From the IMG/VR virus record IMGVR_UViG_2778261447_000005, positions 1 through 18,499 of that record: 18,499 nucleotides of DNA; one strand, given 5' to 3'. How positions within the stretch are numbered: position 1 is the stretch's first letter; each line of letters begins with the position of its first letter. The notes beneath the pieces are model-generated. The model made no database searches and was not told the DNA's origin. It worked only from the letters and a program-made list of their open reading frames with translations. The stretch is from a virus (lineage: Duplodnaviria; Heunggongvirae; Uroviricota; Caudoviricetes). The translations under genes and the position numbers were made by a program. Of this stretch, positions 666-18,499 are shown piece by piece.

Positions 666-668
666 GGT

Positions 669-2121: not shown

Positions 2122-2124
2122 GAT

Positions 2125-4449: not shown

Positions 4450-4687
4450 GTCTGACTTCTCCTTCCTGTGCCCTTTTCTGTCGCTGCGTCATCACCTCAT
4501 GCAGTACGGCGGAGGCATCGCTGATAACGGCGGAGGACTCACGCAGCGCCCGGCTGTATTCGCCCAGCTGCTGCTCTGCGGCGTCACGTGCCTCACCGGC
4601 ACGCCCCAGCCGGTATGACTGCCACATGGCCGCCGCCGTCAGGGTGGTCACCATGAGGGCAACAATCACGGCGTAAACCGGTCTCAT
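4280..4687 (-). CDS. lysB: Inner-membrane spanin (i-spanin, Rz/LysB-like)
   Basis: Start at ATG 4687 (MRPVYAVIVALMVTTLTAAAMW...), GGGAGG RBS; single N-terminal TM then charged, coiled-coil-like periplasmic domain; ATGA overlap with endolysin stop. Confidence 0.65.
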   Translation of the reverse strand: MRPVYAVIVALMVTTLTAAAMWQSYRLGRAGEARDAAEQQLGEYSRALRESSAVISDASAVLHEVMTQRQKRAQEGEVRREQLREIAATDECAGTLPDHRFTDRLREHTERATARALLPVHSGGTDDGNTAPALP

Positions 4688-5229
4688 GTGCTGCCTCCCG
4701 TGTCGCGAAGACACCACTGTCTGAACTCCTCCCGGCGGTTAACCAGCCCCTGTGAGCGGCGTCCGCCACTGTTGACAAAATCGGTCAGTCTCCCGCACAT
4801 CGCCACCCAGCGGTGCGCCTGTGCGTGCTTCCAGATGGTGGTGCGCTGCCGGTTGCCGCTCCTGTCCCGGTACCACATCAGGCCGGTACAGCCGACGTTG
4901 AACGCCGCGTCGGTCATCGCCTCAAAGGCGGACTGGGGCATGGCGGCACCGCTGAAGTTCTGGTTGATACAGTTTTCCGCGTGCCGCAGGTCATTCACCC
5001 AGCGGCGGGCCACCTCCTTTTCTCCGTAAACCCGGTTCTCCACGCCCCCTGTTGAACCACATCCCACGGTCATTACTCCTGCAATATCACGGTACGGTGT
5101 CGCCCGGCACTCTTCCCGGGTGGCGATTTTTATCTGTGCTTCCCGTGAGGTTCTCAGTTCACCGGGTGCCATGGAGACGCCCAGCGCCACAATGGCCGCC
5201 ACCGCATAACGTTTTACCGGCAGTTTCAC
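4684..5229 (-). CDS. Endolysin, GH24 (T4-lysozyme-like) with N-terminal SAR/signal-anchor domain
   Basis: 181 aa; hydrophobic Gly/Ala-rich N-terminus (YAVAAIVALGVSMAPG) followed by catalytic E-x8-D-x5-T spacing in EECRATPYRDIAGVMT; C-terminus resembles P21 R21-type SAR endolysins. Start codon appears to be GTG overlapping the holin stop. Confidence 0.85.
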   Translation of the reverse strand: MKLPVKRYAVAAIVALGVSMAPGELRTSREAQIKIATREECRATPYRDIAGVMTVGCGSTGGVENRVYGEKEVARRWVNDLRHAENCINQNFSGAAMPQSAFEAMTDAAFNVGCTGLMWYRDRSGNRQRTTIWKHAQAHRWVAMCGRLTDFVNSGGRRSQGLVNRREEFRQWCLRDTGGST

Positions 5230-5516
5230 CGCTCTTCTCCGTCCTGTCTCACGCTGTCCAGTGCCCGTCTCTCACCGTCGTGAAGCTCGCGGTTTTCTGA
5301 ACGTGCCAGGATGCGGGCGATAAGGTCATTGCGGCGCTTCATTGCCTGCTCCGTACGCCTGCGGTGGCACCAGGCATGGATGGCGGAAAGTGACCCCAGA
5401 AGCAGCCCGGCCAGCGCAATTTTTTCGCTGATGGTCATAACACCAATGGTTGTTGCCGTCACTGACGCCCAGAAGGTGATCCAGTCACTGACGCGCTGAA
5501 AAAATCCCGTCACCAT
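5226..5516 (-). CDS. Holin, two predicted TMDs (class II, pinholin-like topology)
   Basis: 96 aa; two hydrophobic segments (WITFWASVTATTIGVMTI, IALAGLLLGSLSAIHAW) followed by a highly charged C-terminal tail; sits immediately upstream of the endolysin. Confidence 0.75.
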   Translation of the reverse strand: MVTGFFQRVSDWITFWASVTATTIGVMTISEKIALAGLLLGSLSAIHAWCHRRRTEQAMKRRNDLIARILARSENRELHDGERRALDSVRQDGEER

Positions 5517-5707
5517 AGCTTTACCTTTTCGCGTTGCTGTTTCCTTTCCGGCTCCGGCATCTCCACCTCCTGTCCCGCTTCCAGAATTACCTGGCGGCAG
5601 AGCCCTGGATTGGCATCAAGTACCTGTGCGGTCACCCCCTGCGTGGTGCCGTAGTGCCGGAAACAGAGTAAATCGACGGTATCCCCCTGGAGTGCCCTCA
5701 CTTTCAT
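5510..5707 (-). CDS. X: Tail protein gpX-like (LysM-like)
   Basis: Internal start of ORF 5510..5776 at ATG 5707 (MKVRALQGDTVDLLCFRHYGTTQGVTAQVLDANPGL), 66 aa, close to P2 gpX; ATGA overlap with L stop. Confidence 0.8.
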   Translation of the reverse strand: MKVRALQGDTVDLLCFRHYGTTQGVTAQVLDANPGLCRQVILEAGQEVEMPEPERKQQREKVKLW

Positions 5708-6201
5708 CACACCAGCTCCGCAAAAAGACGGGGGCGACCCAGAATATCTGCCACGGACCAGCGCACATCGCGCCATAAGTCTTCCATCTGCTCATCCAGT
5801 GCGTCAGCCCGGCGGTTCCCTTTATCAGTGGTGTCCACATCCCGCCAGCGTTCCAGAATCAGGGCGCGGGTGGCGCTGTAGACGGCGTTGCGGTAATGCC
5901 ATACGTTGACGCTCTCACCGTTGATGGTGGCGGCAGGCACTTCTGCGAGGATGCTGAACCCTGCGGCAGACTGCGCCTTCTGCCACTCTTCCAGCTCCCG
6001 CGTGACGTGAGCCACGGCTCCCGTGGCAACGTGCGCCAGACGTGTGGAGGTGATGCGGCCCGGCAGGCGTACTGCAAGGCGCAGCTCCCGCAGCACAATC
6101 TCCGGCCAGAATGCCCCGGCGGTGATGGTGGCGTCGCCGTCGTCGGTGTCGGGGATATCGTCCCGTGCAGGGGCGGCTTCCGGTCTTGCGACCATGCTCA
6201 T
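5707..6201 (-). CDS. L: Head completion/stabilisation protein gpL-like
   Basis: 164 aa; FWPEIVLRELRLAVRL...INGESVNVWHYRNAVY resembles P2 gpL; AAGGAG RBS; order M-L-X. Confidence 0.85.
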   Translation of the reverse strand: MSMVARPEAAPARDDIPDTDDGDATITAGAFWPEIVLRELRLAVRLPGRITSTRLAHVATGAVAHVTRELEEWQKAQSAAGFSILAEVPAATINGESVNVWHYRNAVYSATRALILERWRDVDTTDKGNRRADALDEQMEDLWRDVRWSVADILGRPRLFAELV

Positions 6202-6304
6202 AAATCGCTCCTTCAGAAAAAAAAGGCGGTGGGTGCCGGGTGTAAGGGGAACGGAAAACCGTAACCGGAACGCCCGGCACGCCGCCTTCTGACGGGGTCA
6301 GCCG

Positions 6305-7081
6305 TTAACCACGTTTCGCCTTCGCTTTCGCCTTCGGCGTCGTGGTCTGTTCTCTGGTTGTATCTTTCTGTGCCGCAGGCTCCTGTGCGGCAGCGGCTTC
6401 ATCCTGTCCGGCCTTTTTCAGGGCCCGTGAAAGCGTGGCAATCTCACGTTTTACCCCCGCATTCGGGTTAAGGTGCATTGCCTCACGGAACAGCTTCAGA
6501 CTCACCGCCATGCTGTCGGCATCGGTCAGGCCACGACGGGCAAAGGCGCATGCCTTGCACAGCTTGGCGCGGACCTCATCGGGCATGTCCCGGTTCGCGA
6601 CAATTTGCCAGAGGGTGTCCAGCGGTTCGATGTAGCCGGACAAATCGGCGTGTGCATCCGTTCCGGCCTGTGTCAGAACAGGGTTGCAGATTTCCTCGGT
6701 CAGTACCGTGGCTGCCGTACGCCCGAAGTTGTCAGGCATCGTGAGGTTGTGGCGAACCACATAATCCCCGATGCGCAGTGCAAGCGCCAGGTCGCCACAG
6801 TCCACGGCCCACACCATGAGTGTGGCTATCACCTCATCCTGCTGTCCGCCGTCGGCTTCCAGCGTGCCGTCTATCCAGCCTGCAAAACCCGGCAGCATTT
6901 CACGCTTGAGCGCGGCCTTTGCCGCTTTTGCCTGGACGCCCTTTATGCGTTGCTGTGCCAGGCGCAGACGGTGAAGGACCTGCTCATGAGCCGTGCGGGC
7001 CACGATATCCTCGTTTTCTGCTGCCGTTCCTGCCCGTAAAGCCATCACGCGCTGGAAATGAGCCTGTGCCGGTGTCAGCAT
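6305..7081 (-). CDS. M: Terminase small (endonuclease) subunit gpM-like
   Basis: 258 aa; MPDEVRAKLCKACAF and a Lys/Ala-rich C-terminal tail as in P2 gpM; follows N. Confidence 0.9.
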   Translation of the reverse strand: MLTPAQAHFQRVMALRAGTAAENEDIVARTAHEQVLHRLRLAQQRIKGVQAKAAKAALKREMLPGFAGWIDGTLEADGGQQDEVIATLMVWAVDCGDLALALRIGDYVVRHNLTMPDNFGRTAATVLTEEICNPVLTQAGTDAHADLSGYIEPLDTLWQIVANRDMPDEVRAKLCKACAFARRGLTDADSMAVSLKLFREAMHLNPNAGVKREIATLSRALKKAGQDEAAAAQEPAAQKDTTREQTTTPKAKAKAKRG

Positions 7082-7083
7082 GG

Positions 7084-8223
7084 TTAATCCTCCTCTTCCC
7101 CTGCATCCCTGTCTTCAGCCTGCGCTGACAGTGCTTTTGTGGCGTCCCGGTACCAGTCCGGCGCGTCATGGTCATATTCGGCAAAGCTGATATTCTCAAT
7201 CAGTGCGCACTTACCATGGTCCTCAACCACATAGCAGTCGTTAACGGACTGATAGATGGCGATACGGTTGTATTCGGGCTCATCCTTCATGAGACGACGC
7301 ATGGACCCCTTCTGCCAGTAAACCGACAGGTTGCTGAATGAGGTGATGAGTCTTGACTGAGCCGGGAAAAATGGCGCAAGGTACACATCAAGGCCGCCAA
7401 TGGTCCGCGTTGACACAATGAGCTGTCCGGCAAGCAGTTCGGCATTCGGATTCTGCATGCTCATACTGTTCAGGACCGGCAGGCGCAGGGAGTTAAAGAG
7501 GTTTCGCCCCATGATGACAACGAGGTCGTCTGCGTCCTTGTGCCATTCGTCAAGCAGGGATGAGCGTGCATCCTGGACCAGTGCATCGGGATTGGCGTAT
7601 CTGCCGGTGTATGCCACCGAATTGTCCATATTGCGCGCAGTCAGCATCACGTCTTTCATGACGCGTTGCGGGGCCTGGTCCCTGATATCCTGCAGCCACC
7701 CCTTATTGATGTCCTCAAGTCGCGGGTGTTTTTTTATATCCGAGACTTCCGCATGGTGCGTACCGTTAAAACCTGTCATGATGCGATCAAGTGCCACCTG
7801 TCTGGCAATCTGGCGACTCACACGCAGCTGGAAGTCAGGGTGTCCGGCCCACATGTCAAGCTGAGGGTAGGAGATGAAGGTGTCGTAGTTCACCTGCTCG
7901 CACTCATAGCGTCGCGCTTTCATGTCCACCACATTCAGCGGGTTACGACGATTTGTGCCGTCATAACTGCTGTTCGTGCGCGCAACCGGCCCGGTGGTGT
8001 CCAGGAGTACCTTTTCACCTTTCTGCTCTGTCACACCAATGCTGTTGACTTTCTGAAGAAAATCATGGCTTTCCTTTGATGCGTTTTCAAATCTCTGCTG
8101 CACTGCCGGTTGTACCGAAAAGCGGGAGGAGAGCGCAGATATCGTGATGTTATTCATCTCTGCCTGTTGTGCCTGGTAAGCAAAAAGCTCGGCCCGCGCG
8201 GCATCGCTCATGATCAGATTCAT
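7084..8223 (-). CDS. N: Major capsid protein gpN-like
   Basis: 379 aa; motifs RRYECEQVNYDTFISYPQLDMWAGHPDFQLRVSRQIA and GFNGTHHAE resemble the P2 gpN family; AGAGGTGA RBS before ATG 8223; between O and M. Confidence 0.85.
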   Translation of the reverse strand: MNLIMSDAARAELFAYQAQQAEMNNITISALSSRFSVQPAVQQRFENASKESHDFLQKVNSIGVTEQKGEKVLLDTTGPVARTNSSYDGTNRRNPLNVVDMKARRYECEQVNYDTFISYPQLDMWAGHPDFQLRVSRQIARQVALDRIMTGFNGTHHAEVSDIKKHPRLEDINKGWLQDIRDQAPQRVMKDVMLTARNMDNSVAYTGRYANPDALVQDARSSLLDEWHKDADDLVVIMGRNLFNSLRLPVLNSMSMQNPNAELLAGQLIVSTRTIGGLDVYLAPFFPAQSRLITSFSNLSVYWQKGSMRRLMKDEPEYNRIAIYQSVNDCYVVEDHGKCALIENISFAEYDHDAPDWYRDATKALSAQAEDRDAGEEED

Positions 8224-8251
8224 CGGTTATCACCTCTTGTGGTTATTTCTG

Positions 8252-9088
8252 TCAGTAGTCAGCCAGTTGTCTGGACTGCCCGCCGGTTGCCGTAAAACGA
8301 CTTTTCTGATCAGCGTCCAGTCCGCGCAGTCTGTTTTTCAGCTCTGCCAGCTCAGTGGACAGGGTGGCGACTTTCTGTCTGTCTGCCTGATGGCGCGATT
8401 CCAGTGCACTGAAGCGGTCGAGAAGGTCGGCATGCGATGAGGCTATCCCCTCAACGGCGTCATGAATGCGGGAGAACCGGGTGTCGTCAGCCCTGCGTCC
8501 TCGCCCAATCATGTTCATCACGCGGTTAAACCACTGCGCACCTTCCTCGCTGCGGCGCTCCGTCAGTTCGATCACTTCAGCCTCAATGGCGTCAGAGAAC
8601 ATCGGTGCTTCCGTCTGCTGATTATTGAAGGTCATGACCGAACGGCGCTGCTGCAGGGCGAACTGAAGACGCTCCGTGCCGATGCTTGCCGGGGTGTCTG
8701 TCATGGCAAGGCCAATAAGATACGGGGTGCCCGTAGGGGTGAAATTTCGTGCCAGCTCAATACTGGAGTAAATTTTCTTACCCCGGGAGACCAGATTTTT
8801 CATGCGGTCGGTGGGTTCGATTTCCGCATACAGCGCAGTACGACCGGCCAGCGGACCTTCGGTGATTTCTTCTGTGCTCAGTGCCGTCACATCACCCATG
8901 GCGGAAAATTCACTGGACGGAACCGGTGAAAGCCAGTGCTCCACGTTCACGCGTGCGCCGTAAATCTCAGGGTTGAAGTTACTGGCCGCCGCGCGCAAAT
9001 CTGCGGCGCTGATTTCGCGACCGTCTGCGGTGGGACCGGAAACGGCCACGCGGAATGTTTTACGGGATGTTTTTTTCTGTTCAGGCAT
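8252..9088 (-). CDS. O: Capsid scaffolding protein gpO-like
   Basis: ORF 8252..9229 trimmed to internal ATG 9088 (MPEQKKTSRKTFRVAVSGPTADGREISAADL...), 279 aa, GAGGG RBS; resembles P2 gpO N-terminus and length. The upstream 47 codons of the track ORF would invade the promoter region. Confidence 0.85.
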   Translation of the reverse strand: MPEQKKTSRKTFRVAVSGPTADGREISAADLRAAASNFNPEIYGARVNVEHWLSPVPSSEFSAMGDVTALSTEEITEGPLAGRTALYAEIEPTDRMKNLVSRGKKIYSSIELARNFTPTGTPYLIGLAMTDTPASIGTERLQFALQQRRSVMTFNNQQTEAPMFSDAIEAEVIELTERRSEEGAQWFNRVMNMIGRGRRADDTRFSRIHDAVEGIASSHADLLDRFSALESRHQADRQKVATLSTELAELKNRLRGLDADQKSRFTATGGQSRQLADY

Positions 9089-9156
9089 TGTCGGGCCCTC
9101 GTGATGATCGTTTGTCTCATGATGGCAAAACGGGGCAGGGACAGACAAAGTGCGTT

Positions 9157-9180
9157 TGTTGTAAGCGAATGCCGACAACA
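9157..9180. promoter_or_regulatory. Ogr/Delta-type late-promoter activator site (TGTTGT-N12-ACAACA dyad) in divergent O/P intergenic region
   Basis: Read directly: TGTTGTaagcgaatgccgACAACA, a perfect TGT-N12-ACA dyad with extended arms, centred ~55 bp upstream of a candidate -10 (TAAACT, ~9213-9218) for the P/Q operon. Confidence 0.5.
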
Positions 9181-9242
9181 CCGGGCATGGCAGGAGGCCT
9201 GTAAGGGGTGAGTAAACTGCCTGAATCACATGAGGGGGAGAA

Positions 9243-10994
9243 ATGATTCAGGATACATTTGTTCGCCAGCGGGCACGCCAGCTGTACTGGCAGGGTTACC
9301 CTGTTGCGGAAATTTCCCGCCTTATGGGTATCAACCAGAACACGATCCATTCGTGGAAAAAACGCGACCAGTGGGATGAGACGCCCCCGGTTCAGCGTGT
9401 CACGCAGTCCATGGATGCGCGACTCATTCAGCTCACGGAAAAACAGAATAAAACAGGCGGGGACTTTAAGGAAATTGATTTGCTGACCCGTCAGCTTAAA
9501 AAGCTGCATGACGGTCTGCCGGATGAGACGGCAACAGGAAAGAAAGGCCGGGCGAAAAAACGCAAAAATCATTTCACGCCGGAACAGATCGCGGCGCTGC
9601 GGGAAAAAATTACCGACAGGCTGGCCGGACACCAGCGCAAATGGCTTGATGCTATCGGTGCCTGTGAGCGTGCCGGAATTACTGACAGGATGATCCTGAA
9701 ATCCCGCCAGATTGGGGCGACCTGGTATTTTGCGCAGGAAGCGCTGCTGATGGCGCTGCGTGACGATGTGGCACAACCTTACCAGCGTAACCAGATTTTT
9801 TTGTCTGCGTCTCGTCGTCAGGCGCTCCAGTTTAAAAGCATTATTCAGAAGGCTGCATCTGAAGTTGATGTGGAACTGAAAGGGGGCGATAAAGTCATCC
9901 TCTCCAACGGTGCAGAGCTGCATTTTCTCGGCACTTCTGCGGCCACCGCGCAAGCGTACACAGGGAATCTGTATTTTGATGAGTTTTTCTGGACGGGGCG
10001 TTTCGCAGAGCTGCGCAAGGTGGCTGCTGCTATGGCAACGCTGGATGGTTTGCGGTGTACCTATTTTTCCACGCCATCAAGTGAAACACATGAGGCGTAT
10101 GCATACTGGAACGGCGATCACTGGAATGAAGGGCTTCGTACTCATAAACGTCAGCATTTTGATGTGAGCTGGAATGCGCTTCATAACGGCCTTATCTGTC
10201 CTGACTATATCTGGCGGCAAATTGTGACGCTGGAAGATGTGGTCAGTCAGGGATGGACGTTAACCAACATTGACAAAATCCGGCGCAATAACACTGAAGA
10301 CGAGTTCCGCAATCTCTACATGTGTGAATTTGCTCGCGAAGGGGAATCGGCATTTAACCTGAATATCCTGATTGGCTGCGGTGTTGACGGATACGACGAG
10401 TGGCCGGACTGGAAGCCGTTTGCACCGCGTCCGATGGGGAACCGCCCTGTGTGGATTGGGTACGACGCCAACGGCAGTAGCGGGAACGGTGACAGCGGGG
10501 CGGTTGTCGTGGTGGTGCCGCCAGCCGTACCGGGCGGGCGTTTTCGCACCGTGGAGACGCGGCGGGTGCAGGGGCTGGAGTTTGAGGCGCAGGCGAAGGT
10601 GATTGAAGAGTTCACCTTTCGCTATAACGTTGAGCATATCGGTATTGACGTAACCGGCGGTCACGGGGATGCGGTGTATCAGATTGTGAAGCGCTTTTTT
10701 CCGGCAGCCATTCCCTACACCTTCACCCTGTCATCAAAGCGCACGCTGGTTCTGAAGATGCTGCAGCTCATGCGCGCCGGGCGGTGGGAGTACGACCGCA
10801 GCGAGCGCGAACTGGTGAGCGCCTTTAACGCGGTACGCAAAACAAAAACGCAGGCCGGATTTATCACCTACGAAACAGATCGCGCAAGAGGCGTAAGCCA
10901 TGGCGATCTTGCATGGGCCACCATGCTGGCCGTTATCAACGAACCTGTCGGCGGTGAACATGATGCCGCCCCCTTCAGTGTTACGGAGTTCTGA
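9243..10994 (+). CDS. P: Terminase large (ATPase) subunit gpP-like
   Basis: 583 aa; N-terminus with QLYWQGYPVAEISRLMGIN...HSWKKRDQWDE matches P2 gpP-type terminases; GAGGGGGAG RBS; divergent from O as in P2. Confidence 0.9.
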   Translation: MIQDTFVRQRARQLYWQGYPVAEISRLMGINQNTIHSWKKRDQWDETPPVQRVTQSMDARLIQLTEKQNKTGGDFKEIDLLTRQLKKLHDGLPDETATGKKGRAKKRKNHFTPEQIAALREKITDRLAGHQRKWLDAIGACERAGITDRMILKSRQIGATWYFAQEALLMALRDDVAQPYQRNQIFLSASRRQALQFKSIIQKAASEVDVELKGGDKVILSNGAELHFLGTSAATAQAYTGNLYFDEFFWTGRFAELRKVAAAMATLDGLRCTYFSTPSSETHEAYAYWNGDHWNEGLRTHKRQHFDVSWNALHNGLICPDYIWRQIVTLEDVVSQGWTLTNIDKIRRNNTEDEFRNLYMCEFAREGESAFNLNILIGCGVDGYDEWPDWKPFAPRPMGNRPVWIGYDANGSSGNGDSGAVVVVVPPAVPGGRFRTVETRRVQGLEFEAQAKVIEEFTFRYNVEHIGIDVTGGHGDAVYQIVKRFFPAAIPYTFTLSSKRTLVLKMLQLMRAGRWEYDRSERELVSAFNAVRKTKTQAGFITYETDRARGVSHGDLAWATMLAVINEPVGGEHDAAPFSVTEF

Positions 10995-12049
10995 TGAGCA
11001 GAAAAAATAAACAACGACGTACGAACGCCCGCGCAGCGCAGGGCAGCCTTGCGGATTCCCTGCGAAGCGACCCGACACTAAGTGCCTTCACGTTTGAAGG
11101 ACCTTACCGGCTGTCAGGGGCCGACCTGCTGGACAGCATGTACTGCGCCGACAACGGGCGGTGGTTTGAAACGCCCGTTGACTGGTACGGACTGGCACGG
11201 GCTGCCCGCCAGACGTCCTGGCACCAGTCGGCGCTCAGCTTCAAACGTAATGTGCTGCTGGGCTGCTATATTCCACATCCTCTGCTGTCCCGCCAGGAGT
11301 TCGCCGGGGTGGCGATGGACTGGTTTGTGTTCGGTAATGCCTGTCTTGAGCTGCGGCGCAACATGCTTGGCGAACCGCTGGCCCTGCGCCGGGCGCTGGC
11401 GAAATACATGCGACGTGGCAGCGATATGAAATCATGGTGGTATATACAGGAAGGACAGGAAGAGTACCGCTTTCGTGAGGGGACGATATGCCACCTGATG
11501 AATCCTGATATCAACCAGGAGATTTACGGGATGCCGGATTACCTGGGCGGCCTGCTGTCTGCCAGCCTGTCACATTCCGCCGATATCTTCCGCAAGCTCT
11601 ACTACGATAACGGCTCACACGCGGGCTGTATTGTCTACATCGGTGCGGCGCAGGTTGACCGTGAAAGCATGGAAAAACTGCGGGAAACACTGCAAAGCGC
11701 GCGTGGTGGCGGGGCGTTTAAAAATCTGCTCATCCACGCGGCGGGAGGTGGTAAGGATGGCGTACAGATTTTGCCGTTTCAGCAAATCACCGCAAAGGAT
11801 GAGTTCATGAACGTCAAGGCTGCATCGCGTGATGATGTGCTGTCCGTGCACCGTGTACCGCCGCAGCTGATGGGGGCCATGCCGGGTGAGAAGGGGTCAT
11901 TCGGGGATGTGGAGAAGGCAGCCCGTGTGTTTGCCATTAACGAACTGATGCCCGTCATGGAAGCAATGAAACACGTCAACGACTGGCTGGGCGAAGAGGT
12001 GATCCGTTTTAACCCTTACGCACTGTTAGACACCCAGCCCATATCCTGA
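10994..12049 (+). CDS. Q: Portal (capsid vertex) protein gpQ-like
   Basis: 351 aa; SAFTFEGP, NGRWFETPV, PDINQEIYGMPDYL, GKDGVQILPFQ and QLMGAMPGEKGSFGDVEKAARVF match P2 gpQ as I recall it; start overlaps P stop. Confidence 0.9.
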   Translation: MSRKNKQRRTNARAAQGSLADSLRSDPTLSAFTFEGPYRLSGADLLDSMYCADNGRWFETPVDWYGLARAARQTSWHQSALSFKRNVLLGCYIPHPLLSRQEFAGVAMDWFVFGNACLELRRNMLGEPLALRRALAKYMRRGSDMKSWWYIQEGQEEYRFREGTICHLMNPDINQEIYGMPDYLGGLLSASLSHSADIFRKLYYDNGSHAGCIVYIGAAQVDRESMEKLRETLQSARGGGAFKNLLIHAAGGGKDGVQILPFQQITAKDEFMNVKAASRDDVLSVHRVPPQLMGAMPGEKGSFGDVEKAARVFAINELMPVMEAMKHVNDWLGEEVIRFNPYALLDTQPIS

Positions 12050-12075
12050 CGCGCTTCGCTTGTCTGCTGCTTCGC

Positions 12076-12100
12076 CGGGGCATAAAAAATTTATGCCCCG
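12076..12100. terminator. Perfect 11-bp stem / 3-nt loop hairpin between convergent Q and the 12116 ORF
   Basis: cGGGGCATAAAaaaTTTATGCCCCg read directly; lies 27 nt after the Q stop and 16 nt after the convergent ORF stop. No flanking U-tract, so terminator function is inferred from position only. Confidence 0.45.
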
Positions 12101-12115
12101 ACTCTCCAGCTCTGC

Positions 12116-12619
12116 TTAACGAAGTGCTGATGGCGCTCGCTTTTTCAGGTGATTAGCGATGTGCTTTTTCATGTGCATAACAACATCGCCCCAGGCTTCT
12201 TCGCTGGGTTTATTGATAAATACGCGAACAGAAATATCGTCTTCCACCCGGACTCTCAGAGACACCCGTTCCGCATCTACTGAATATAATTCAAGTGCAA
12301 TAACCACGCTTACCGGGTAGCTGCTGTCAGATGACTTAACCCAGGTTCGCACGGCCATGCGGAAAATATTGTCTGGTGCAGATGCGATATTGTGGACTGA
12401 AAGAGGACTAAAATCCGCCGCTGTCTTACATGGCAAGCCTGTCTCCACGTAGCGGTGCAGGTCGCCATCATCGTCTTCCCAGTACATGGATGGAAGCCCC
12501 AGCCATTCTTCATAGAAATCAATCAGCCTTGCCGCTTCATCCCGCAAAATTTGAGCTGCCTCAGCGCGTTTTTCTTCAGCTTCACGATTGATCTGGCATA
12601 AATCATTAAAGTGGCTCAT
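12116..12619 (-). CDS. Hypothetical protein, unrecognised family (accessory/moron candidate); alternative in-frame start at 12826/12829 would give ~237 aa
   Basis: ATG 12619 is preceded by AAGAGGA at optimal spacing (MSHFNDLCQINREAEEKRAEAAQILRDEAARL..., 167 aa). The same frame stays open 70 codons further upstream (TTG-ATG at 12829/12826) but without an RBS. No resemblance to P2 structural or replication proteins that I can recall. Confidence 0.55.
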   Translation of the reverse strand: MSHFNDLCQINREAEEKRAEAAQILRDEAARLIDFYEEWLGLPSMYWEDDDGDLHRYVETGLPCKTAADFSPLSVHNIASAPDNIFRMAVRTWVKSSDSSYPVSVVIALELYSVDAERVSLRVRVEDDISVRVFINKPSEEAWGDVVMHMKKHIANHLKKRAPSALR

Positions 12620-13045
12620 GACATTATCCTCTTTTGAGTTGATGCCTGCCGCTATTCTGACTTTGCCCGGGTTCTCCTGCAAGCTGGTTATTCCTTCAGA
12701 TAATTTCACAACATCTCCAACCTTGTAGCCATCATCGCCGGGCGGATGCTTACGCAACCCCGCAACTCTGACGACATATTCTCGCTGCCTCAGTGCGATT
12801 TTGACGGCCTTATCTTTCACCCCCATCAAATCAAGCTTTTACGTCTTTTTTACGCTCAGCGTGAGAAATACAGCCATTCTGTTGTGTCGCTGCAACATCG
12901 TTCAGGGAATGCTATTTACCCCCTGAAACGCGGGCTGTTCCCCCGTCACCTGCGCGCAGAAAAAGGCCTTTTTTCGTGCACGCACGGATCCCCGACGGAT
13001 CCAGACGCCACACGGGCCGGAAGGGCAAAAAGTCGTTCAAAAAAA

Positions 13046-13072
13046 TTGTGCAAATTTGTGCACTATTGTGCA
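13046..13072. repeat. Three perfect direct repeats of TTGTGCA at exact 10-bp phasing
   Basis: aTTGTGCAaatTTGTGCActaTTGTGCAttg read directly (13046, 13056, 13066), immediately adjacent to the terminator hairpin, inside a ~280-bp non-coding stretch. Confidence 0.5.
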
Positions 13073-13080
13073 TTGAAATA

Positions 13081-13103
13081 AACGCCCTGGAGGAGGGCGT
13101 TTT
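13081..13103. terminator. Rho-independent terminator, probably bidirectional; ends the minus-strand A-linked operon
   Basis: AACGCCCTggaggAGGGCGTT (8-bp GC-rich stem, 5-nt loop) followed by TT on plus and by TTTATTTCAAT on minus; begins 7 nt after the stop of the 13110..13511 ORF. Confidence 0.65.
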
Positions 13104-13109
13104 GCTCAT

Positions 13110-13511
13110 CTATTTATAGCCTTGCCCCTTACTGGCCAGCGCCCTGATGGCAGGGCGTGCCAACACCATATTTTGGCAATGATGAATTGCCCGGCAAAAT
13201 TCATCTCTACCCATTGGATGCTCAACTGGCAATGTAAAATACAGGTTCCATGCATCGCCTAAAAGTTGGGCTATCTTTTGTTCTTCAGATGTCAGCAAGC
13301 GGTACTCCCCATCCTTGATGTAGTCACTTGTGCCATCGACCTGCTGTTCTGCAATGTGGAAAGCACCTATTGGTTTTGCTTCCAGCGATGCCAAAGCAAT
13401 CCGTGCCAGTTTTTCCGCTTCTTCGGCTGGCAGTACAACGTTGCTACCAGGTCCGTATGTTTCGCGCCACTGCCTGATTGTCAGTAGTCGCTCTTTGGTT
13501 ATAGTGGTCAT
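13110..13511 (-). CDS. Hypothetical protein (133 aa), last gene of A-linked cassette
   Basis: ATG 13511 overlaps the upstream stop (ATGA); GAGGAT RBS; ends just before the terminator. Sequence MTTITKERLLTIRQWRETYGPGSNVVLPAEEAEKLARIALASLEAK... not recognised. Confidence 0.55.
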   Translation of the reverse strand: MTTITKERLLTIRQWRETYGPGSNVVLPAEEAEKLARIALASLEAKPIGAFHIAEQQVDGTSDYIKDGEYRLLTSEEQKIAQLLGDAWNLYFTLPVEHPMGRDEFCRAIHHCQNMVLARPAIRALASKGQGYK

Positions 13512-13717
13512 TTGTTAATCCTCAAAACTTTATGCCCGGGCGCAAAAGCACGAGTTTTGTCTTTGCTTATTCGCCAGCCATCCTTACGCGCCTCTTTTGC
13601 ACAGCCAGTCCATGACGTACCGATATATTCACCGAAGTCTGGCGTTTGATATTTACCATTTGTACACTGGCGACAATCACAATAGAGATGCATGGTGTAA
13701 CTTGCGGCAATAGCCAT
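13508..13717 (-). CDS. Hypothetical small Cys-cluster protein (69 aa), possible zinc-binding
   Basis: ATG 13717 with AGGAG RBS; contains C-x-C-x2-C ... C (HLYCDCRQC...WTGC); stop overlaps the next start. Confidence 0.5.
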   Translation of the reverse strand: MAIAASYTMHLYCDCRQCTNGKYQTPDFGEYIGTSWTGCAKEARKDGWRISKDKTRAFAPGHKVLRINK

Positions 13718-13718
13718 A

Positions 13719-14033
13719 TCAGTCTCCTTTGATGCCAGTGTTTACAACCTGACAAGCCTCTTTGAGCACCCAGTCAACAGCGTCTTGCCATGCTCCGGTT
13801 TCGACTGGCGGATTCTCACGCTTTACCAGTTCATAGAAACGTACTGCTCTAACCAGTCCATCTGACGGTTTTACCTGTAGTGCAGCCTGAGCTATGCGGT
13901 ATACCTGGAGCATACAGGCGTCGTTGATATCCATTCCGAATGGAATATCTGATGACTGAGATTCCACATCTTCCAGCCTGGCAATTTCTTTACGTAAGAA
14001 GCCTTTCAGTTCCTGCTTCTGTTTCCTGTTCAT
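13719..14033 (-). CDS. Hypothetical protein (~104 aa)
   Basis: The track ORF 13719..14048 starts on a TTG; the first ATG at 14033 (MNRKQKQELKGFLRKEIARLEDVES...) has a GAAGGA RBS. Family not recognised. Confidence 0.5.
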   Translation of the reverse strand: MNRKQKQELKGFLRKEIARLEDVESQSSDIPFGMDINDACMLQVYRIAQAALQVKPSDGLVRAVRFYELVKRENPPVETGAWQDAVDWVLKEACQVVNTGIKGD

Positions 14034-14044
14034 ATATTTTTCCT

Positions 14045-14239
14045 TCAAAGTTCGGTTCGCTGACAGGGTTTCTCTTTACGGCAGACAATGACGCTTCCTT
14101 TGCTCGAGTCGGTGATTGTTACCGTGCCGTCATCACACTGGACAATGACAACGGTGTTGCTCTTTTTCGCTACGCAGTTCGGCGTGGCTGATTGTGCGAA
14201 TGGCGCGAAAAACAGCAGAAAAAGTAATATTCTGCTCAC
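14045..14239 (-). CDS. Hypothetical small secreted protein (64 aa precursor, ~45 aa mature, 4 Cys)
   Basis: GTG start at 14239 overlapping the upstream stop (GTGA), GGGAGG 8 nt upstream. Product MSRILLFLLFFAPFAQS|ATPNCVAKKSNTVVIVQCDDGTVTITDSSKGSVIVCRKEKPCQRTEL has a classic type-I signal peptide with an AQS-type cleavage site. The track's longer 123-aa version would overlap the upstream gene out of frame. Confidence 0.5.
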   Translation of the reverse strand: MSRILLFLLFFAPFAQSATPNCVAKKSNTVVIVQCDDGTVTITDSSKGSVIVCRKEKPCQRTEL

Positions 14240-14667
14240 TGTTGTTTCCTCCCGTTCTGTGCTGGTCTGGCGAATGAATTGCGTTGTGGTGAAAAGACCA
14301 TTCGCGCCAGCGCGGCCTTGTGATTGACTGTGTTCAGTGTTCTGGCCAGTCCGCCGTTGTGCCTGCGTGTCCGCTCTTCGTGATATCTCTGCATGATTTT
14401 CCCGGCAGGCGTGCACGGCTCCGGTTCCTCCGGCGAACGGCGCGGACGAATGACGACAGTCCAGCTATGGCTCTCGCTGCCCGGCCGCCTGTTGAGTATG
14501 TCGGCGATGGTGGTCTCCGTGGTGCGATCGGGGCTGACTATCGTGATTTCCAGCTCGTCGCCCGGTTGTGGCCTTGTGGCAGGCCTGAACAGTGTCAGCA
14601 CCGGCATACGCTGGCGCATGATGGCCTCAAACTGTGGGCGCTGCATGGTGCAGCAAAATCGCGTCAT
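14236..14667 (-). CDS. Hypothetical Arg-rich protein (143 aa), translationally coupled to A
   Basis: ATG 14667 overlaps the A stop (ATGA) and is preceded by GGAGG; at the position of P2 orf91 but longer, and I do not recognise the sequence. Confidence 0.5.
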   Translation of the reverse strand: MTRFCCTMQRPQFEAIMRQRMPVLTLFRPATRPQPGDELEITIVSPDRTTETTIADILNRRPGSESHSWTVVIRPRRSPEEPEPCTPAGKIMQRYHEERTRRHNGGLARTLNTVNHKAALARMVFSPQRNSFARPAQNGRKQQ

Positions 14668-17174
14668 GCTCCCGCCTCCACTGGCTGCTCTGTGATGATG
14701 TGACGGGCTGACTCATCCCAGTACGCTGTTCCCCCGTTATCCAGACGCACACGGGCACCGTTACGCACGGAGATGATGGCCGCGTCAGGCAACTGCACAC
14801 CCAGCGCATCAAGTTCGCGGGCGATTTGCGTGTCCGTCGCGGTATCCGCAGGCACGACAATCCCCACCCTTACAGGGGTGTCAGATGCCGGTGTGGTGTC
14901 GTTTTGTCCGGTTTTTGCGCCCGACGGCTGATTTTTAATCTGATTACGCAGTTTTCTCCGATCGCCCCTGCTTAACGTATTCAGCCAGCTTTCCAGGTTC
15001 TCTTCGGGAAGCGTCAGTCGTCCGGGGTCCTGCCTGTTTTCTGGTCCGTGATTGTCTGTTTTTTCATCCCGGGGACAGTTATTGCCACGAGTCCAAGGGG
15101 CGACGGGGTCGCCCTGAAGGTCAAAACCCTCGCCCGTGCGGTTGTCTGGTGTTGTTTCTTTTTTAACCAGTTTCCACTCGTCCGGATGGGTGCATATGGT
15201 GTACCGCTCTCCGAGCGACGGGGCGCAGATTCCGTAGATACGTTGAGGGAATTCACCGTAGTCGTTGGCTTCGTCTGCGGTTTCGTATGCGGTGCGGACC
15301 AGATACTGGTTGCGCGGAATGAGCACACCACCCTGTTTCATGATGTAGGTGGCAAAACATCCCACATCTGCGGCAGCCATAATGGCGTCAATATCGTCAT
15401 GATCGAGGTGCTTCGGTGATGCCGGGTTGCGCTCCATCTGGCTTGCAAGGCGGCGGAGTTCACGCCATACCTGGCGGGGCGGAATGCCGAAAAACTGGAA
15501 CTGACGGATGCGGTGAAGGCTTGCCCAGGCAATGGCGTTCTCCACGGTTTCCGCCATGGTTTTCCCGGATTCCTCATCAACGTAAGGTTTTCCGGTTTTC
15601 GGATCATTGTTGTGGAAAGCGCTGGCGTCCAGGTTCTTACCGATATAGGTTGCGATATAGCTTGCCGGTGTGCCTTTTTCCGGGTCTATCTTCTCGCATT
15701 TAAAGCGCGGTGAAATATCGTCCCCCAGTTCGTGGCGATCTGATTTAATTGCTGCTTCGCGCATAATTTCGATGATGCGCTCTGCGTTCTCCGGGGAAGT
15801 GAATACCAGCATATGCCAGTGTGGCGTGCCGTCATGGTGTGGCTCAGCGGTTCGCACGCCGTACCAGCCCAGCCCCTCTTTTTTTATTTTTTTTCTTACG
15901 GCTGCGAAGAAGTCGTAAACCAGATAATCACTGGCATCTCGTACTGTGGCACCGTTGTATTTCGGGTTCAGGCTGCCGTTCTCGTTCACGCTGTGAAAGC
16001 GGGAAGGGGTGGTTACTGTGATGAAGAATGCGACGTCAGCCCGTAATTCGGCCACCATCTCCATCCCTCTGACGCAGACCATCATTTCATTGCGGCGGTT
16101 GCGTGGATTACCCAGGCCAGCCCAGTACACGTCCTCCAGACTCAGGCGCTCGCCGTCTTCGTTTTCAATATCCCAGCTTTTGAGAAAGTCACGGGTGCGC
16201 TGGCGCTTCTCGCGGAACTCCAGTAGTGACTCATGGCTGATATAGGGGGATTGTTTACGTGACACTCTGCCGGCGGCGCGCAGTAACTCCTCCCGCCAGA
16301 GATCGGCGACGTGGCGTAACTGGTTGTTCCACCAGGTCGCGCAGGTGATGCGCAGTACCGCACCCGGAACCCGTTCAGGGTCCGGCGGTGTGCGTCGGTT
16401 GTGCCTGATTTCGAGTTCCGGCCAGTATGGCGGGACCACGCCCAGAATTAAGGCTGTGCGTGCCACCTTCTGGTAGGCCAGCAGCCAGATAACAGGGCTG
16501 TCATTATCCTTGCCTGTCCGTTCAAGAACTTCATCACATATGCGTTCAAATTCTGCGGCGAATGCCTGGGCTGTCAGTGTGGCGATGCGCTGGATTTCGT
16601 CACGGGTGAGTTGCGGCAGTGTGAGCAGTTCTTCAAGGCGATGGCGCACGACGGTGGTTTTGAATGCCGGCGTTGCAAAGCGGTCGTTAACCCTTTCAAT
16701 ACGTTTCAGGCGCGCACGCAGTCCACGGCGAACGAAATTATCGGCCACGTATGCGCTGTTGTTTTTTACACCTTCACTGCGGGCACTTTGCTGTTTCCGG
16801 TTCAGTCGTGCCAGATCACGGATCAACACACTGGCAAGAAACGAGGGCAGGGTGCGAAGTTCGGCTATCGCCTCCGATACCGCCGTTGGCGGATTTTCGC
16901 GTCTGTGTCGTGCCAGCTTATCCAGCCTTATCTGCCGCTCTTCGTCCCGGTGAAGGTGTGAATTAATTTGCTTACCTTTGTCCGTGGTTGTCAGGAAGGC
17001 CACGGTTTCTTCATCCAGCCGGGCCTCAGTGCGAATGTCTTCGGTGAGGTAGTCACGGATTGCCCGTTGTAATGCGGTTGGCTTCTGCGGTAATGCTCTG
17101 CCGAATGTCTCAGGATCAATAACCGGCAGCGGGGCGTTCCACGGGTACGCCAGGTGCGTGTGGTGATGGCTCAT
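14664..17174 (-). CDS. A: Replication initiation protein gpA-like (HUH rolling-circle endonuclease)
   Basis: 836 aa; YPWNAP near the N-terminus, HUH motif in EPHHDGTPHWHMLVF, catalytic-Tyr motif SYIATYIGKN; all match P2 gpA as I recall it. GGGGAG RBS. Confidence 0.9.
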   Translation of the reverse strand: MSHHHTHLAYPWNAPLPVIDPETFGRALPQKPTALQRAIRDYLTEDIRTEARLDEETVAFLTTTDKGKQINSHLHRDEERQIRLDKLARHRRENPPTAVSEAIAELRTLPSFLASVLIRDLARLNRKQQSARSEGVKNNSAYVADNFVRRGLRARLKRIERVNDRFATPAFKTTVVRHRLEELLTLPQLTRDEIQRIATLTAQAFAAEFERICDEVLERTGKDNDSPVIWLLAYQKVARTALILGVVPPYWPELEIRHNRRTPPDPERVPGAVLRITCATWWNNQLRHVADLWREELLRAAGRVSRKQSPYISHESLLEFREKRQRTRDFLKSWDIENEDGERLSLEDVYWAGLGNPRNRRNEMMVCVRGMEMVAELRADVAFFITVTTPSRFHSVNENGSLNPKYNGATVRDASDYLVYDFFAAVRKKIKKEGLGWYGVRTAEPHHDGTPHWHMLVFTSPENAERIIEIMREAAIKSDRHELGDDISPRFKCEKIDPEKGTPASYIATYIGKNLDASAFHNNDPKTGKPYVDEESGKTMAETVENAIAWASLHRIRQFQFFGIPPRQVWRELRRLASQMERNPASPKHLDHDDIDAIMAAADVGCFATYIMKQGGVLIPRNQYLVRTAYETADEANDYGEFPQRIYGICAPSLGERYTICTHPDEWKLVKKETTPDNRTGEGFDLQGDPVAPWTRGNNCPRDEKTDNHGPENRQDPGRLTLPEENLESWLNTLSRGDRRKLRNQIKNQPSGAKTGQNDTTPASDTPVRVGIVVPADTATDTQIARELDALGVQLPDAAIISVRNGARVRLDNGGTAYWDESARHIITEQPVEAGA

Positions 17175-17179
17175 TCCGC

Positions 17180-17593
17180 TTACTCCCCTGCTGTTGCCTT
17201 CTCAAATGCAGCCCGGTACAGCACAAGAAGGCGCTGGTATTCAGCGATAAAGTCTTCTGCTGTTTTAATCCCTTTCACGACCACGCTGTGGGTGGTCATT
17301 TCCAGAACGAGCACCATTTCTGACGATGACCAGCTGATAACGCTGCTGTCGCACCCGTTGATGTGGAACAGGCCCAGCACCATGCTGTGGTTCTGGTCTC
17401 TGACATCCACGCGGTAACGGTCATCAACGGTGAAGGAAAAATTCCCGTATGTGGTGGCGCTGCTGGCGGCCTGTTTACAGGCGCGGCGGTAATAGTCATG
17501 CAGGTCATTGAGACGGGAAGCGAGGCGTGGATCCACCGCCCACATCCAGTTAAAAAAATCCTGAATATCTGAAAGTCCCTTAACGCTCTTCAT
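17180..17593 (-). CDS. Hypothetical early-operon protein (137 aa) immediately upstream of A
   Basis: ATG 17593 with GGAGG RBS; stop 5 nt before the A start; P2 orf80-83/B position but the sequence is not recognised. Confidence 0.55.
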   Translation of the reverse strand: MKSVKGLSDIQDFFNWMWAVDPRLASRLNDLHDYYRRACKQAASSATTYGNFSFTVDDRYRVDVRDQNHSMVLGLFHINGCDSSVISWSSSEMVLVLEMTTHSVVVKGIKTAEDFIAEYQRLLVLYRAAFEKATAGE

Positions 17594-17661
17594 GAGAACC
17601 TCCGGAAACGGACGTGCGGAAGCCTCCCGCGTACGGGGGCGGGATGGCTCCGGGATGTTGA

Positions 17662-17889
17662 TTAGTGGTGGTAGTGCTGGTTAATGAGGTCCTGCAGCTT
17701 GCGCAGGTCATCCGCCAGGTAGCTGAATACAGCGGCGGAATACATGTTTGACAGTGCGTGGCTGCGCTCATGCAGCATATTGATGTGCATGATATGCGCG
17801 ACGCGGAATGCGCGGGAAAGTCTGCGGTTGATTTCAGTCTGGATGTGACGACGCGCAGCGTATGCGCGCTGTTGTTTGCGGTTTGCCAT
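17662..17889 (-). CDS. Hypothetical small basic early protein (75 aa)
   Basis: ATG 17889 with GAAGAGG RBS; first ORF downstream of the putative early control region; Arg/His-rich N-terminus. Confidence 0.45.
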   Translation of the reverse strand: MANRKQQRAYAARRHIQTEINRRLSRAFRVAHIMHINMLHERSHALSNMYSAAVFSYLADDLRKLQDLINQHYHH

Positions 17890-17937
17890 GGTGTTTGGCC
17901 TCTTCGTTTGTGAGTTTTTGGATACTCACCATCCAGA

Positions 17938-17977
17938 GGTTGCAATTCTGGGTGGCGAGACGTACAGGGTTGCAACC
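17938..17977. promoter_or_regulatory. Two GGTTGCAA boxes 30 bp apart (second is the perfect palindrome GGTTGCAACC) upstream of the early operon; candidate operator and -35 elements
   Basis: agaGGTTGCAAttctgg at 17938-17945 and cagGGTTGCAACCacc at 17968-17977, read directly. TTGCAA resembles a -35 hexamer on either strand. Located 50-90 bp upstream of the 75-aa ORF start. Confidence 0.4.
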
Positions 17978-18070
17978 ACCGGCAAACGAAGAAACCGGCC
18001 CGACCGAAGTCGGCCCCGTACGCCCCACCATAATTCTGGTGCGAAAAAGACGTGGCGATACGGTACGCAC

Positions 18071-18091
18071 AAAAAAACCGCTGGCGCGGTT
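18071..18091 (-). terminator. Putative rho-independent terminator on minus strand
   Basis: On the minus strand AACCGCgccaGCGGTT (6-bp stem, 4-nt loop) followed by a T-run of ~7; lies ~120 nt downstream of the truncated ORF ending at 18213. Confidence 0.45.
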
Positions 18092-18113
18092 GTGCGCTTC
18101 GTTTGTCAGCGGG

Positions 18114-18121
18114 GGTTGCAA
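18114..18121. promoter_or_regulatory. Third GGTTGCAA box embedded in a near-palindrome
   Basis: cgGGGGTTGCAAtcccgg read directly; same 8-mer as the two boxes at 17938-17977. Confidence 0.35.
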
Positions 18122-18212
18122 TCCCGGCACCCGTTTTATGAGGTGCAGCGGAAATGTAACCTGACTGATTGCGGCATGGCAAGCGGTTTTTTTGTGTGTG
18201 CATAGTGGTTAC

Positions 18213-18437
18213 TCAGTCCGGTAGCAGTTCGCAAAGCACGGTGTCAGCGGCGGTATATCGTGCGTAAAGCCGGGCGAGGACCCATCTTTTAAGGGATATC
18301 CCGGTCGTGTCCCGGATGTACTTTCTGATTTCGCTGAATGTCATCCCCTGTTCATCGCGCAGTTCAGTTACCAACTCCACCAGGTGATTGAAGTGGTTTA
18401 CTGAATTTGGCCACCTGAACAGAGGTGATATGCTCAC
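18213..18437 (-). pseudogene. Early-region ORF whose 5' end is provided by the IS terminus (likely 5'-truncated gene or IS-fusion artefact)
   Basis: The track ORF starts on a GTG at 18437, inside the IS end (IS begins ~18389). The native part encodes ...LVELVTELRDEQGMTFSEIRKYIRDTTGISLKRWVLARLYARYTAADTVLCELLPD. An internal ATG at 18344 could give a 43-aa product but has a poor RBS. Confidence 0.35.
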
Positions 18438-18499
18438 CTCAGAACAACACAGGTGCCATAATGAAAAAAAGAAATTTCAGCGCAGAGTTTAAACGCGAA
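18389..18499 (+). mobile_element. IS3-family insertion sequence (IS911-like), left end; element continues beyond window
   Basis: Terminus TGAAGTGGTTTACTGAATTTGGCCACCTGAACAGAGGTGATATG (IS3-family ends start with TG), followed 72 bp in by an ORF starting MKKRNFSAEFKRE, the characteristic N-terminus of IS911-type OrfA as I recall it. Confidence 0.75.
18461..18499 (+). CDS. IS3-family transposase OrfA, first 13 codons only
   Basis: ATG 18461; MKKRNFSAEFKRE...; runs off the window end. Confidence 0.75.
   Translation, partial: MKKRNFSAEFKRE

Follow-up and report, generated by a model that had tools for sequence, protein, structure and literature searches.

The DNA analysed here, referred to as the window, spans positions 1 to 18,499 of IMG/VR virus record IMGVR_UViG_2778261447_000005 (18,499 nucleotides (nt)) and belongs to a P88-like (Xuanwuvirus, P2-type) prophage. 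The subject of this work is a small minus-strand gene between the portal and gpA replication genes of this prophage, which encodes a protein of 69 amino acids (aa) belonging to the family phrog_926. The features of the gene and its product are as follows:

13508..13717, minus strand: coding sequence (CDS) of the 69-aa protein, a phrog_926 member, with the ATG at 13717-13715 and the TGA at 13510-13508, taken from the minus-strand translation
13724..13729, minus strand: ribosome-binding site (RBS) AAGGAG, 6 nt 5' of the ATG, read from the minus-strand sequence
13664..13681, minus strand: putative N-terminal metal knuckle, L-Y-C-D-C-x-x-C, at the end of strand beta1, with Cys13 at 13681-13679, Cys15 at 13675-13673 and Cys18 at 13666-13664
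13532..13540, minus strand: putative C-terminal half-site Pro60-Gly61-His62, motif A-P-x-H (C-P-x-C or C-P-x-H in a sister subfamily)
13601..13603, minus strand: Cys39, in predicted helix 36-45, not a conserved ligand
13544..13597, minus strand: conserved basic face, residues 41-58, comprising the helix end (A43, R/K44), G47-W48 and a Lys/Arg-rich beta3-beta4 hairpin

The protein translated from the minus strand is MAIAASYTMHLYCDCRQCTNGKYQTPDFGEYIGTSWTGCAKEARKDGWRISKDKTRAFAPGHKVLRINK followed by the stop, with a computed mass of 7.85 kDa and isoelectric point (pI) of 9.4; translation of the plus strand across 13508-13717 is broken by a stop. Its cysteines are Cys13, Cys15, Cys18 and Cys39. An earlier note on this DNA, made from the letters alone, had reported a 69-aa protein at these positions with a C-x-C-x2-C...C arrangement. 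Its coordinates and quoted protein were exact and the arrangement agrees with the four cysteines; the strand, which it left unstated, is minus.

The upstream gene ends with a TGA at 13721-13719, 1 nt before the ATG of the 69-aa gene, and the TGA of the 69-aa gene overlaps the ATG of the next open reading frame (ORF) as ATGA; the gene has a strong RBS and is translationally coupled to both neighbours. The NCBI Prokaryotic Genome Annotation Pipeline (PGAP) calls the same CDS as WP_000951718.1, "hypothetical protein", in an identical prophage stretch of complete E. coli genomes. The ratio of nonsynonymous to synonymous substitution rates (dN/dS) against close homologues was 0.14-0.31, and third codon positions hold 42 of the 71 nucleotide differences from a homologue of 65% identity. 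On the strength of the RBS, the coupling, the PGAP CDS, dN/dS, the third-position bias, and the phrog_926 and profile matches given below, sequence comparison confirmed that the ORF is a real gene, evidently under purifying selection. According to the opposite explanation, the ORF would be a chance or non-coding one, its cysteine cluster accidental and the conservation of its DNA due to, for example, a recombination linker. It draws on the 365-bp block around the gene (see below), a mosaic exchange unit common to unrelated phages, and on the many small ORFs without assigned function in the region. It conflicts with purifying selection acting in the 69-aa frame, with the RBS and translational coupling, with protein homologues down to 25-30% identity that keep the ligands and the G-W motif, and with a confident structure prediction. 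We assign it a negligible probability, and a non-coding artefact was excluded for practical purposes.

The match to phrog_926 ("unknown function") was full length, residues 1-69 aligning to profile positions 1-69 of 69 at E 6.6e-37, and this was the only PHROG matched at E ≤ 0.01; 89 of 89 diverse aligned homologues matched the same profile. The 69-aa protein had no match in Pfam (E ≤ 0.1), NCBIfam, the PADLOC-DB collection of defence proteins (0 families, E ≤ 0.1) or PDB sequences, and a Pfam search with the 89 relatives gave nothing except HTH_17 in one fusion. A word-indexed search returned 47 close relatives, each of them enterobacterial and annotated as "hypothetical". When the profile was searched against 1.84 billion representatives of clusters at 50% identity, 424 matched at E ≤ 1e-3, of which 56 were at E ≤ 1e-10. 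Nearly all phrog_926 representatives are stand-alone proteins of 60-85 residues with the signature M-I-x-x-G-Y...L-Y-C-D...G-W...P-x-[HC]. The window protein does not differ from them in size, signature or stand-alone architecture, and carries C13, C15, C18, H62, A43, G47 and W48 of the signature derived here for the family. Because RefSeq already contains the identical protein and PHROGs lists its family as phrog_926, the gene is not new; phrog_926 itself is without assigned function, Pfam or NCBIfam model, or solved structure, and membership names the protein and explains nothing.

Three further groups of matches are noted here. P0048 (134 aa, from an NCBI contig of 45 kb) is an in-frame tandem duplication with two complete phrog_926 domains in one ORF. 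Homologues with 90% and 59% identity to the E. coli protein were found, respectively, in a 427-bp contig assigned to Xanthomonas pisi (L005) and in a 5-kb contig of an Actinomycetes metagenome-assembled genome (L009), and contamination or mis-binning is more likely for these than true occurrence. P0079, a matrix-metalloproteinase-like protein of 697 aa with repeated Cys-rich modules, reached E 1.3e-12 through nine short stretches at profile positions 30-60, which looks like a spurious hit summed over repeats.

Invariant positions in the 11 closest full-length sequences include C13, C15, C18, H62, G47-W48-R-I-S, D53, R56, P60 and K63; at position 39, three of the 11 (P0027, P0029 and P0031) have Thr or Val. 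Residue frequencies, here and for the basic face below, were calculated over 125 cluster representatives. Position 13 is Cys in 124 and position 14 Asp or Glu in 117; position 15 is Cys in 64; position 18 is Cys in 101 and His in 6, the remainder having a His a few residues on; position 59 is Cys in 64, position 60 Pro in 115, and position 62 His in 79 and Cys in 44. Position 39 is occupied by Cys (72), Ala (20), Thr (16) or Val (13), and these substitutions fit a buried helix residue.

Cys15 and Cys59 proved to be mutually exclusive: 60 representatives have only Cys15, 60 only Cys59, 4 both and 1 neither (Fisher p 1.5e-29, a value that overstates independence, as the two ligand types may be largely two clades). 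The corresponding numbers in a set of 189 sequences, filtered for redundancy at 80% identity, were 81, 99, 9 and 0. By mutual information with average-product correction (MI-APC), the pairs 15-59, 15-61 and 15-62 were among the strongest long-range pairs, 15-59 being the third-strongest. The family falls into type A, which includes the window protein and reads C13-x-C15-x2-C18...H62, and type B, which reads C13...C/H at about position 18...C59-P-x-C/H62. Read in this way, the alignments suggest that four ligands are kept in every member, with one ligand moving between positions 15 and 59.

The interchange of Cys and His and the relocation of a ligand between distant positions are predicted by a single tetrahedral metal site, whereas neither disulfides nor chance would give rise to them. 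They argue for a true metal site, and it is very probable that Cys13, Cys15, Cys18 and His62 form a structural metal site in the window protein. The metal would most likely be Zn2+, iron also being compatible with the sequence. Disulfides were considered and rejected on the grounds of a cytoplasmic protein without signal peptide and of Cys/His interchange at positions 18 and 62. The suggestion in the earlier note that the four cysteines make up a zinc knuckle or ribbon therefore survives in part: comparison points to a metal site, probably for zinc, with Cys3His ligands from which Cys39 drops out. Conservation of the four cysteines in homologues, which that note had named as a check, likewise holds for Cys13, Cys15 and Cys18 and breaks down at Cys39, on the counts given above.

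A related proposal is that the Cys3His site binds iron or [2Fe-2S], as a mitoNEET-type 3Cys-1His or a rubredoxin-type centre, and that the protein is a redox or iron sensor. The identity of the metal is not decidable by the ligand set alone, and CDGSH proteins also show 3Cys-1His ligation and a C-x-C start. The CDGSH/mitoNEET motif is C-x-C-x2-[ST]-x3-P-x-C-D-G-[SAT]-H; neither its spacing nor its residues occur in the window protein, in which 2 residues lie between the second and third Cys and 43 between the third Cys and the His, and which had no Pfam match. Moreover, Cys/His interchange at two positions together with a relocated ligand is typical of structural zinc and unusual for Fe-S. An iron-binding sensor is judged highly improbable, and a structural zinc site is retained.

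Structure prediction with AlphaFold2 gave a mean predicted local distance difference test (pLDDT) score of 76 with 11 aligned sequences and 82.5 with 89, the topology being the same in both; pLDDT was 88-92 over residues 31-60 in the 89-sequence model. The predicted topology consists of a beta strand (7-13), a short helix at the knuckle (16-19), a second strand (28-33), a helix (36-45) and a beta3-beta4 hairpin (48-57). With ligands supplied by the end of beta1 and by the turn that follows beta4, the metal would staple both ends of the chain in the model. The resulting small alpha/beta model is confident and has no counterpart among solved structures, and beta-beta-alpha-beta-beta mini-domains (protein G B1, protein L and beta-grasp-like) are among the closest known systems. 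Searches of PDB with the single sequence and with the family profile returned nothing significant. The only sequence signal from PDB was a weak local match of family profile positions 25-65 to helix 1 of plant ZF-HD homeodomains (1wh7_A, E 0.018; 1wh5_A, E 0.028), over the segment F-T-G-E-T...A-R-x-x-G-W-R-I. Kinship with ZF-HD homeodomains was considered and set aside, the match being probably a local coincidence of helix cap and G-W motif.

A conserved surface of the model lies in residues 41-58, where A43 is kept in 122 representatives, R/K44 in 111, and G47 and W48 in 124 each. Median net charge across the family is -3 for residues 1-40, +4 for residues 41-58 and +2 for the tail, and the basic face 41-58 is a candidate ligand-binding surface.

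The gene is widespread and patchy. It was found in 666 of 5426 complete E. coli genomes (12%), at 810 places of which 177 are on plasmids, and, by tblastn, in 433 of 50,697 phage records. Carriers include Shiga toxin (Stx) phages, P1-like phages (D6), temperate Klebsiella phages, many strictly lytic Ackermannviridae of 150-160 kb (Vi01_032, Det7, PhaxI, LIMEstone1, KpS110), the T1-like phage Rogue1 and Agrobacterium phage 7-7-1; the hosts thus comprise gamma- and alpha-proteobacteria, and both temperate and strictly lytic phages are represented. The gene always sits in an array of small early genes. Lambdoid phages carry it either immediately following Ead/Ea22 and ahead of NinB (nin region) or in the pL-side exo-xis region, Vi01 has it behind a dCMP deaminase gene as the last member of an early cluster, and in Rogue1 and 7-7-1 it lies among small ORFs without assigned function. 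No conserved partner gene was found in approximately 20 loci from genomes, metagenomes and phage records. Because the immediate neighbours differ from locus to locus, the protein probably works alone, with no obligatory partner. The recurrence of Ead/Ea22 upstream and a DUF551/550-type gene downstream in enterobacterial lambdoid phages was considered as a functional pairing and put aside, as it looks like an effect of synteny and recombination linkers.

Natural fusions join the phrog_926 domain to an HTH_17 excisionase-type DNA-binding domain of the helix-turn-helix (HTH) class (P0180), to a Lar-like restriction-alleviation domain (P0088; phrog_599, E 8.4e-5, C-terminal half only) and to DUF7683 (P0239); several other fusions are read-throughs with neighbouring lambdoid genes.

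Comparison of the window with phages by megablast delimited a mobile unit around the gene:

13371..13735, strand not applicable: exchanged block of 365 bp, containing the RBS, the entire 69-aa gene and 47 codons from the start of the following gene

The block recurs at 93-96% identity in lambdoid phages that convert to Stx production, in P1-like phage-plasmids (RCS47 and PH444) and in other coliphages, and has been exchanged as a unit between unrelated phage types. In RCS47 the 69-aa gene is CDS p0093. In Stx2 phage 86 the homologue is unannotated; it lies between orf46 and orf45 of the exo-xis region, with Ea22-like orf47 and TraR-like orf48 upstream of it. Because its edges fall within the neighbouring genes, the block looks like a recombination joint using shared N-terminal gene modules.

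The protein was compared with known families of small metal-binding proteins, and the claim of the earlier note that it does not match the spacing of Ogr/Delta or TraR/DksA was borne out, with no Pfam hit at E ≤ 0.1 and the motifs of both families absent. Ogr/Delta proteins (PF04606), the late-gene activators of P2-like phages, are likewise zinc proteins of about 70 aa from a P2-type phage. There was no profile match to them, and the C-x-C-x2-C cluster lacks a second Cys pair: Ogr has two Cys pairs (a C4 finger), whereas the window protein has C-x-C-x2-C...H, a predicted alpha/beta fold and a gene at the tail of an early operon in a cargo hotspot. The prophage is only partly within the window, to which the search for an Ogr homologue was confined. 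TraR, lambda Orf73 and DksA (PF01258, zf-dskA_traR) are small zinc proteins of early accessory operons, distinguished by a CxxC-x17-CxxC finger and an N-terminal acidic DxxDxA tip (PMC8614690). Neither motif occurs in the window protein, there was no match to the Pfam model, and the window protein is not predicted to be helical.

These comparisons bear on the idea that the protein, although outside both families, is a transcription factor acting on RNA polymerase in the manner of Ogr/Delta or of TraR and lambda Orf73. In its favour are a predicted small zinc protein in a P2-like phage, a basic surface, and the closeness of lambdoid homologues to a TraR-like gene of their own early operon, at about 1 kb (orf48 of Stx2 phage 86 is approximately 1.1 kb from the homologue). 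It is opposed by the missing matches to PF04606 and PF01258, by the lack of the paired CxxC knuckles and acidic DxxDxA tip of TraR/Orf73 (PMC8614690), and by a predicted fold that is alpha/beta and not the helical TraR fold. Action on RNA polymerase is considered improbable.

Lar-like proteins (phrog_599) are also small Cys-rich early accessory proteins of temperate coliphages. They are zinc ribbons with two CxxC knuckles; the window protein did not match their profile, and their module is distinct from phrog_926. Lambda Ea8.5, which has a hybrid homeodomain/zinc-finger fold (PDB 2M7A; PMC8614690), is likewise small and binds zinc; its gene lies between ea22 and xis, a neighbourhood shared by the lambdoid homologues of the 69-aa protein. 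Neither the sequence nor the profile search of PDB returned an Ea8.5-type chain, and Ea8.5 is a helical homeodomain whereas the window protein is predicted to be beta-beta-alpha-beta-beta. The 69-aa ORF is not treated in the review in which exo-xis proteins were modelled (PMC8614690). With respect to SWIM domains, there was no Pfam match and the last ligands of the window protein are C18 and H62 in place of a C-x-H pair. The SWIM signature is C-x-C-x(n)-C-x-H. The likeness of the protein to the Ogr/Delta, TraR/DksA, SWIM, CDGSH, Lar, Ea8.5 and PADLOC families is limited to its being a small metal-binding phage accessory protein.

For the position of the gene within the prophage, the following neighbouring features were identified from Pfam and PHROGs matches, the composition profile and RNA folding; the capsid genes lie farther left in the window:

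9243-10994, plus strand: terminase (Pfam/PHROGs)
10994-12049, plus strand: portal gene (Pfam and PHROGs)
12050..14250, strand not applicable: low-GC cargo segment, 46-52% GC, from the portal gene to the replication operon (composition profile)
13080..13102, minus strand: terminator-like hairpin with a 9-bp GC-rich stem followed by AUUUC, just 3' of the 133-aa ORF
13110..13511, minus strand: downstream ORF of 133 aa, coupled through ATGA, a chimera
13719..14048, minus strand: upstream small gene of 104-109 aa, phrog_26213 / phrog_660 (function unassigned), in the packed chain from gpA
14664-17174, minus strand: gpA replication endonuclease (Pfam and PHROGs)

By PGAP coordinates, five overlapping or abutting ORFs follow gpA on the minus strand, and the 69-aa gene is the fourth of these (the fifth counting gpA); 4-nt overlaps occur along this chain (PGAP gene boundaries). 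In the 133-aa ORF, residues 1-47 correspond to the N-terminal module of DUF551/DUF550-type lambdoid proteins (phrog_60, 3323 and 660) and residues 72-133 match phrog_13916, labelled 'DNA ligase'; PGAP annotates only its first 45 codons, as a truncated pseudogene. The hairpin at 13080-13102 has a folding energy of -18.8 kcal/mol (z -4.3), none of 200 shuffles folding equally well, and is the probable end of the early operon. On the minus strand from gpA to this hairpin, a simple consensus scan found neither a sigma70-like promoter nor a terminator. Given the gene chain from gpA, the lack of an internal promoter or terminator in that scan, and the hairpin at the end, the 69-aa gene is most simply the tail of the early replication operon.

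The phage backbone flanking the cargo segment has 56-64% GC, and phage P88 holds different genes at this position. It corresponds to the variable hotspot known from P2-like phages (PMC9122126). The description of the locus as a cassette or cargo in the earlier note is fair, because the GC content is low relative to the flanks and other genes occupy the site in P88.

Taken together, these results are most readily accommodated by the following mechanism. The gene would be expressed by read-through from gpA, early after induction or infection and not in the lysogen, a timing that would agree with its contexts in other phages (exo-xis, nin and arrays of small early genes). Its product would be a stand-alone cytoplasmic mini-protein of 7.8 kDa, of the phrog_926 family, with a beta-beta-alpha-beta-beta domain whose N-terminal strand and C-terminal tail are linked through one Zn2+ ion; Cys13, Cys15 and Cys18, where beta1 ends, and His62, in the A-P-x-H turn, would be the ligands. 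This zinc staple would make the domain rigid and present the basic face formed by A43-R44, G47-W48, the hairpin 49-58 and the basic tail, which would bind an acidic and broadly conserved ligand, taken here to be nucleic acid (DNA or RNA). A step in early phage development would in this way be modulated without enzymatic activity. We put forward such a zinc-stapled early module, binding nucleic acid through its basic face, as a tentative proposal. Nucleic acid is preferred because the basic face and tail are conserved, because one fusion carries an HTH domain, and because the family is spread across very different hosts and lifestyles.

Several points weigh against this proposal, in addition to the possible two-clade origin of the ligand types and the use of simple consensus scans for promoters and terminators, both mentioned above. 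The grouping of the four ligands into one site was deduced from sequence conservation. A quarter of members have a pI below 7, and the family is not uniformly basic. The HTH fusion is a single example in the family. Small early phage proteins act on host proteins more often than on nucleic acids. Lastly, literature searches with accessions (WP_000951718, BAF34077 and CDN90843), phrog_926 and peptide strings found no paper.

The same zinc-stapled fold could instead act on a host protein, as an early host-takeover or anti-defence inhibitor (for example, in restriction alleviation) that works by stoichiometric binding. Homologues lie in accessory early regions where inhibitors cluster, namely the Stx exo-xis region (beside Ea22 and TraR-like orf48), the nin region and the P2-type hotspot; DNA methyltransferases are frequent nearby; the acidic N-terminal half and basic C-terminal half would suit a protein interface; and the gene is dispensable and patchy, as its presence in 12% of complete E. 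coli genomes illustrates. The Lar-like fusion and the location in accessory regions keep this anti-defence or host-takeover reading alive. On the other side, the window protein has no match in PADLOC or in a Pfam or PHROG family of known function, there is one Lar-like fusion only, which could reflect the adjacency of two early genes, and inhibitors aimed at specific, rapidly evolving defence proteins would not usually keep an invariant core at 30-50% identity across very different hosts and lifestyles. We consider a host-protein target possible and somewhat unlikely, and rank a nucleic acid target slightly above it. The earlier note had also offered a possible role as a regulator or as an inhibitor of host or phage enzymes, with which context and fusions are compatible.

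The broadest form of the anti-defence idea is that phrog_926 represents an undescribed zinc-stapled fold, unlike any solved structure, and a pan-phage early effector that neutralises a conserved host function or defence. Restriction alleviation is one example, hinted at by the natural fusion with a Lar-like domain, and we regard this extension as doubtful. For now the protein joins the many small, conserved phage proteins that have no assigned function. What is added here is the true ligand set with its 15/59 relocation, a model without a solved analogue, probable early-operon expression, and a wide distribution that takes in Stx-converting phages and essentially the Vi01-type lytic phages used in biocontrol. 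Should a target be found, hundreds of phage genomes would be annotated at once, and that target could reveal a new host-takeover or anti-defence activity.

Two further observations were made in the window. A 237-aa ORF at 12116-12829 (minus strand; phrog_5091, function unassigned) adjoins the portal gene in the low-GC cargo segment, a position at which P2-like phages often carry defence genes; it had no match in Pfam or PADLOC. Matches above the Rfam gathering score were obtained for C4 antisense RNA (79 bits; 17948-18035, minus strand) and for the isrK Hfq-binding small RNA (62 bits; 18071-18146, minus strand). Both adjoin a 75-aa ORF at 17662-17889 (minus strand), whose counterpart in the identical E. 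coli prophage is annotated by PGAP as 'derepression protein', and the two RNAs together with this ORF are a P1/P7/P4-style RNA-based immunity/antirepressor module in a P88-like prophage.

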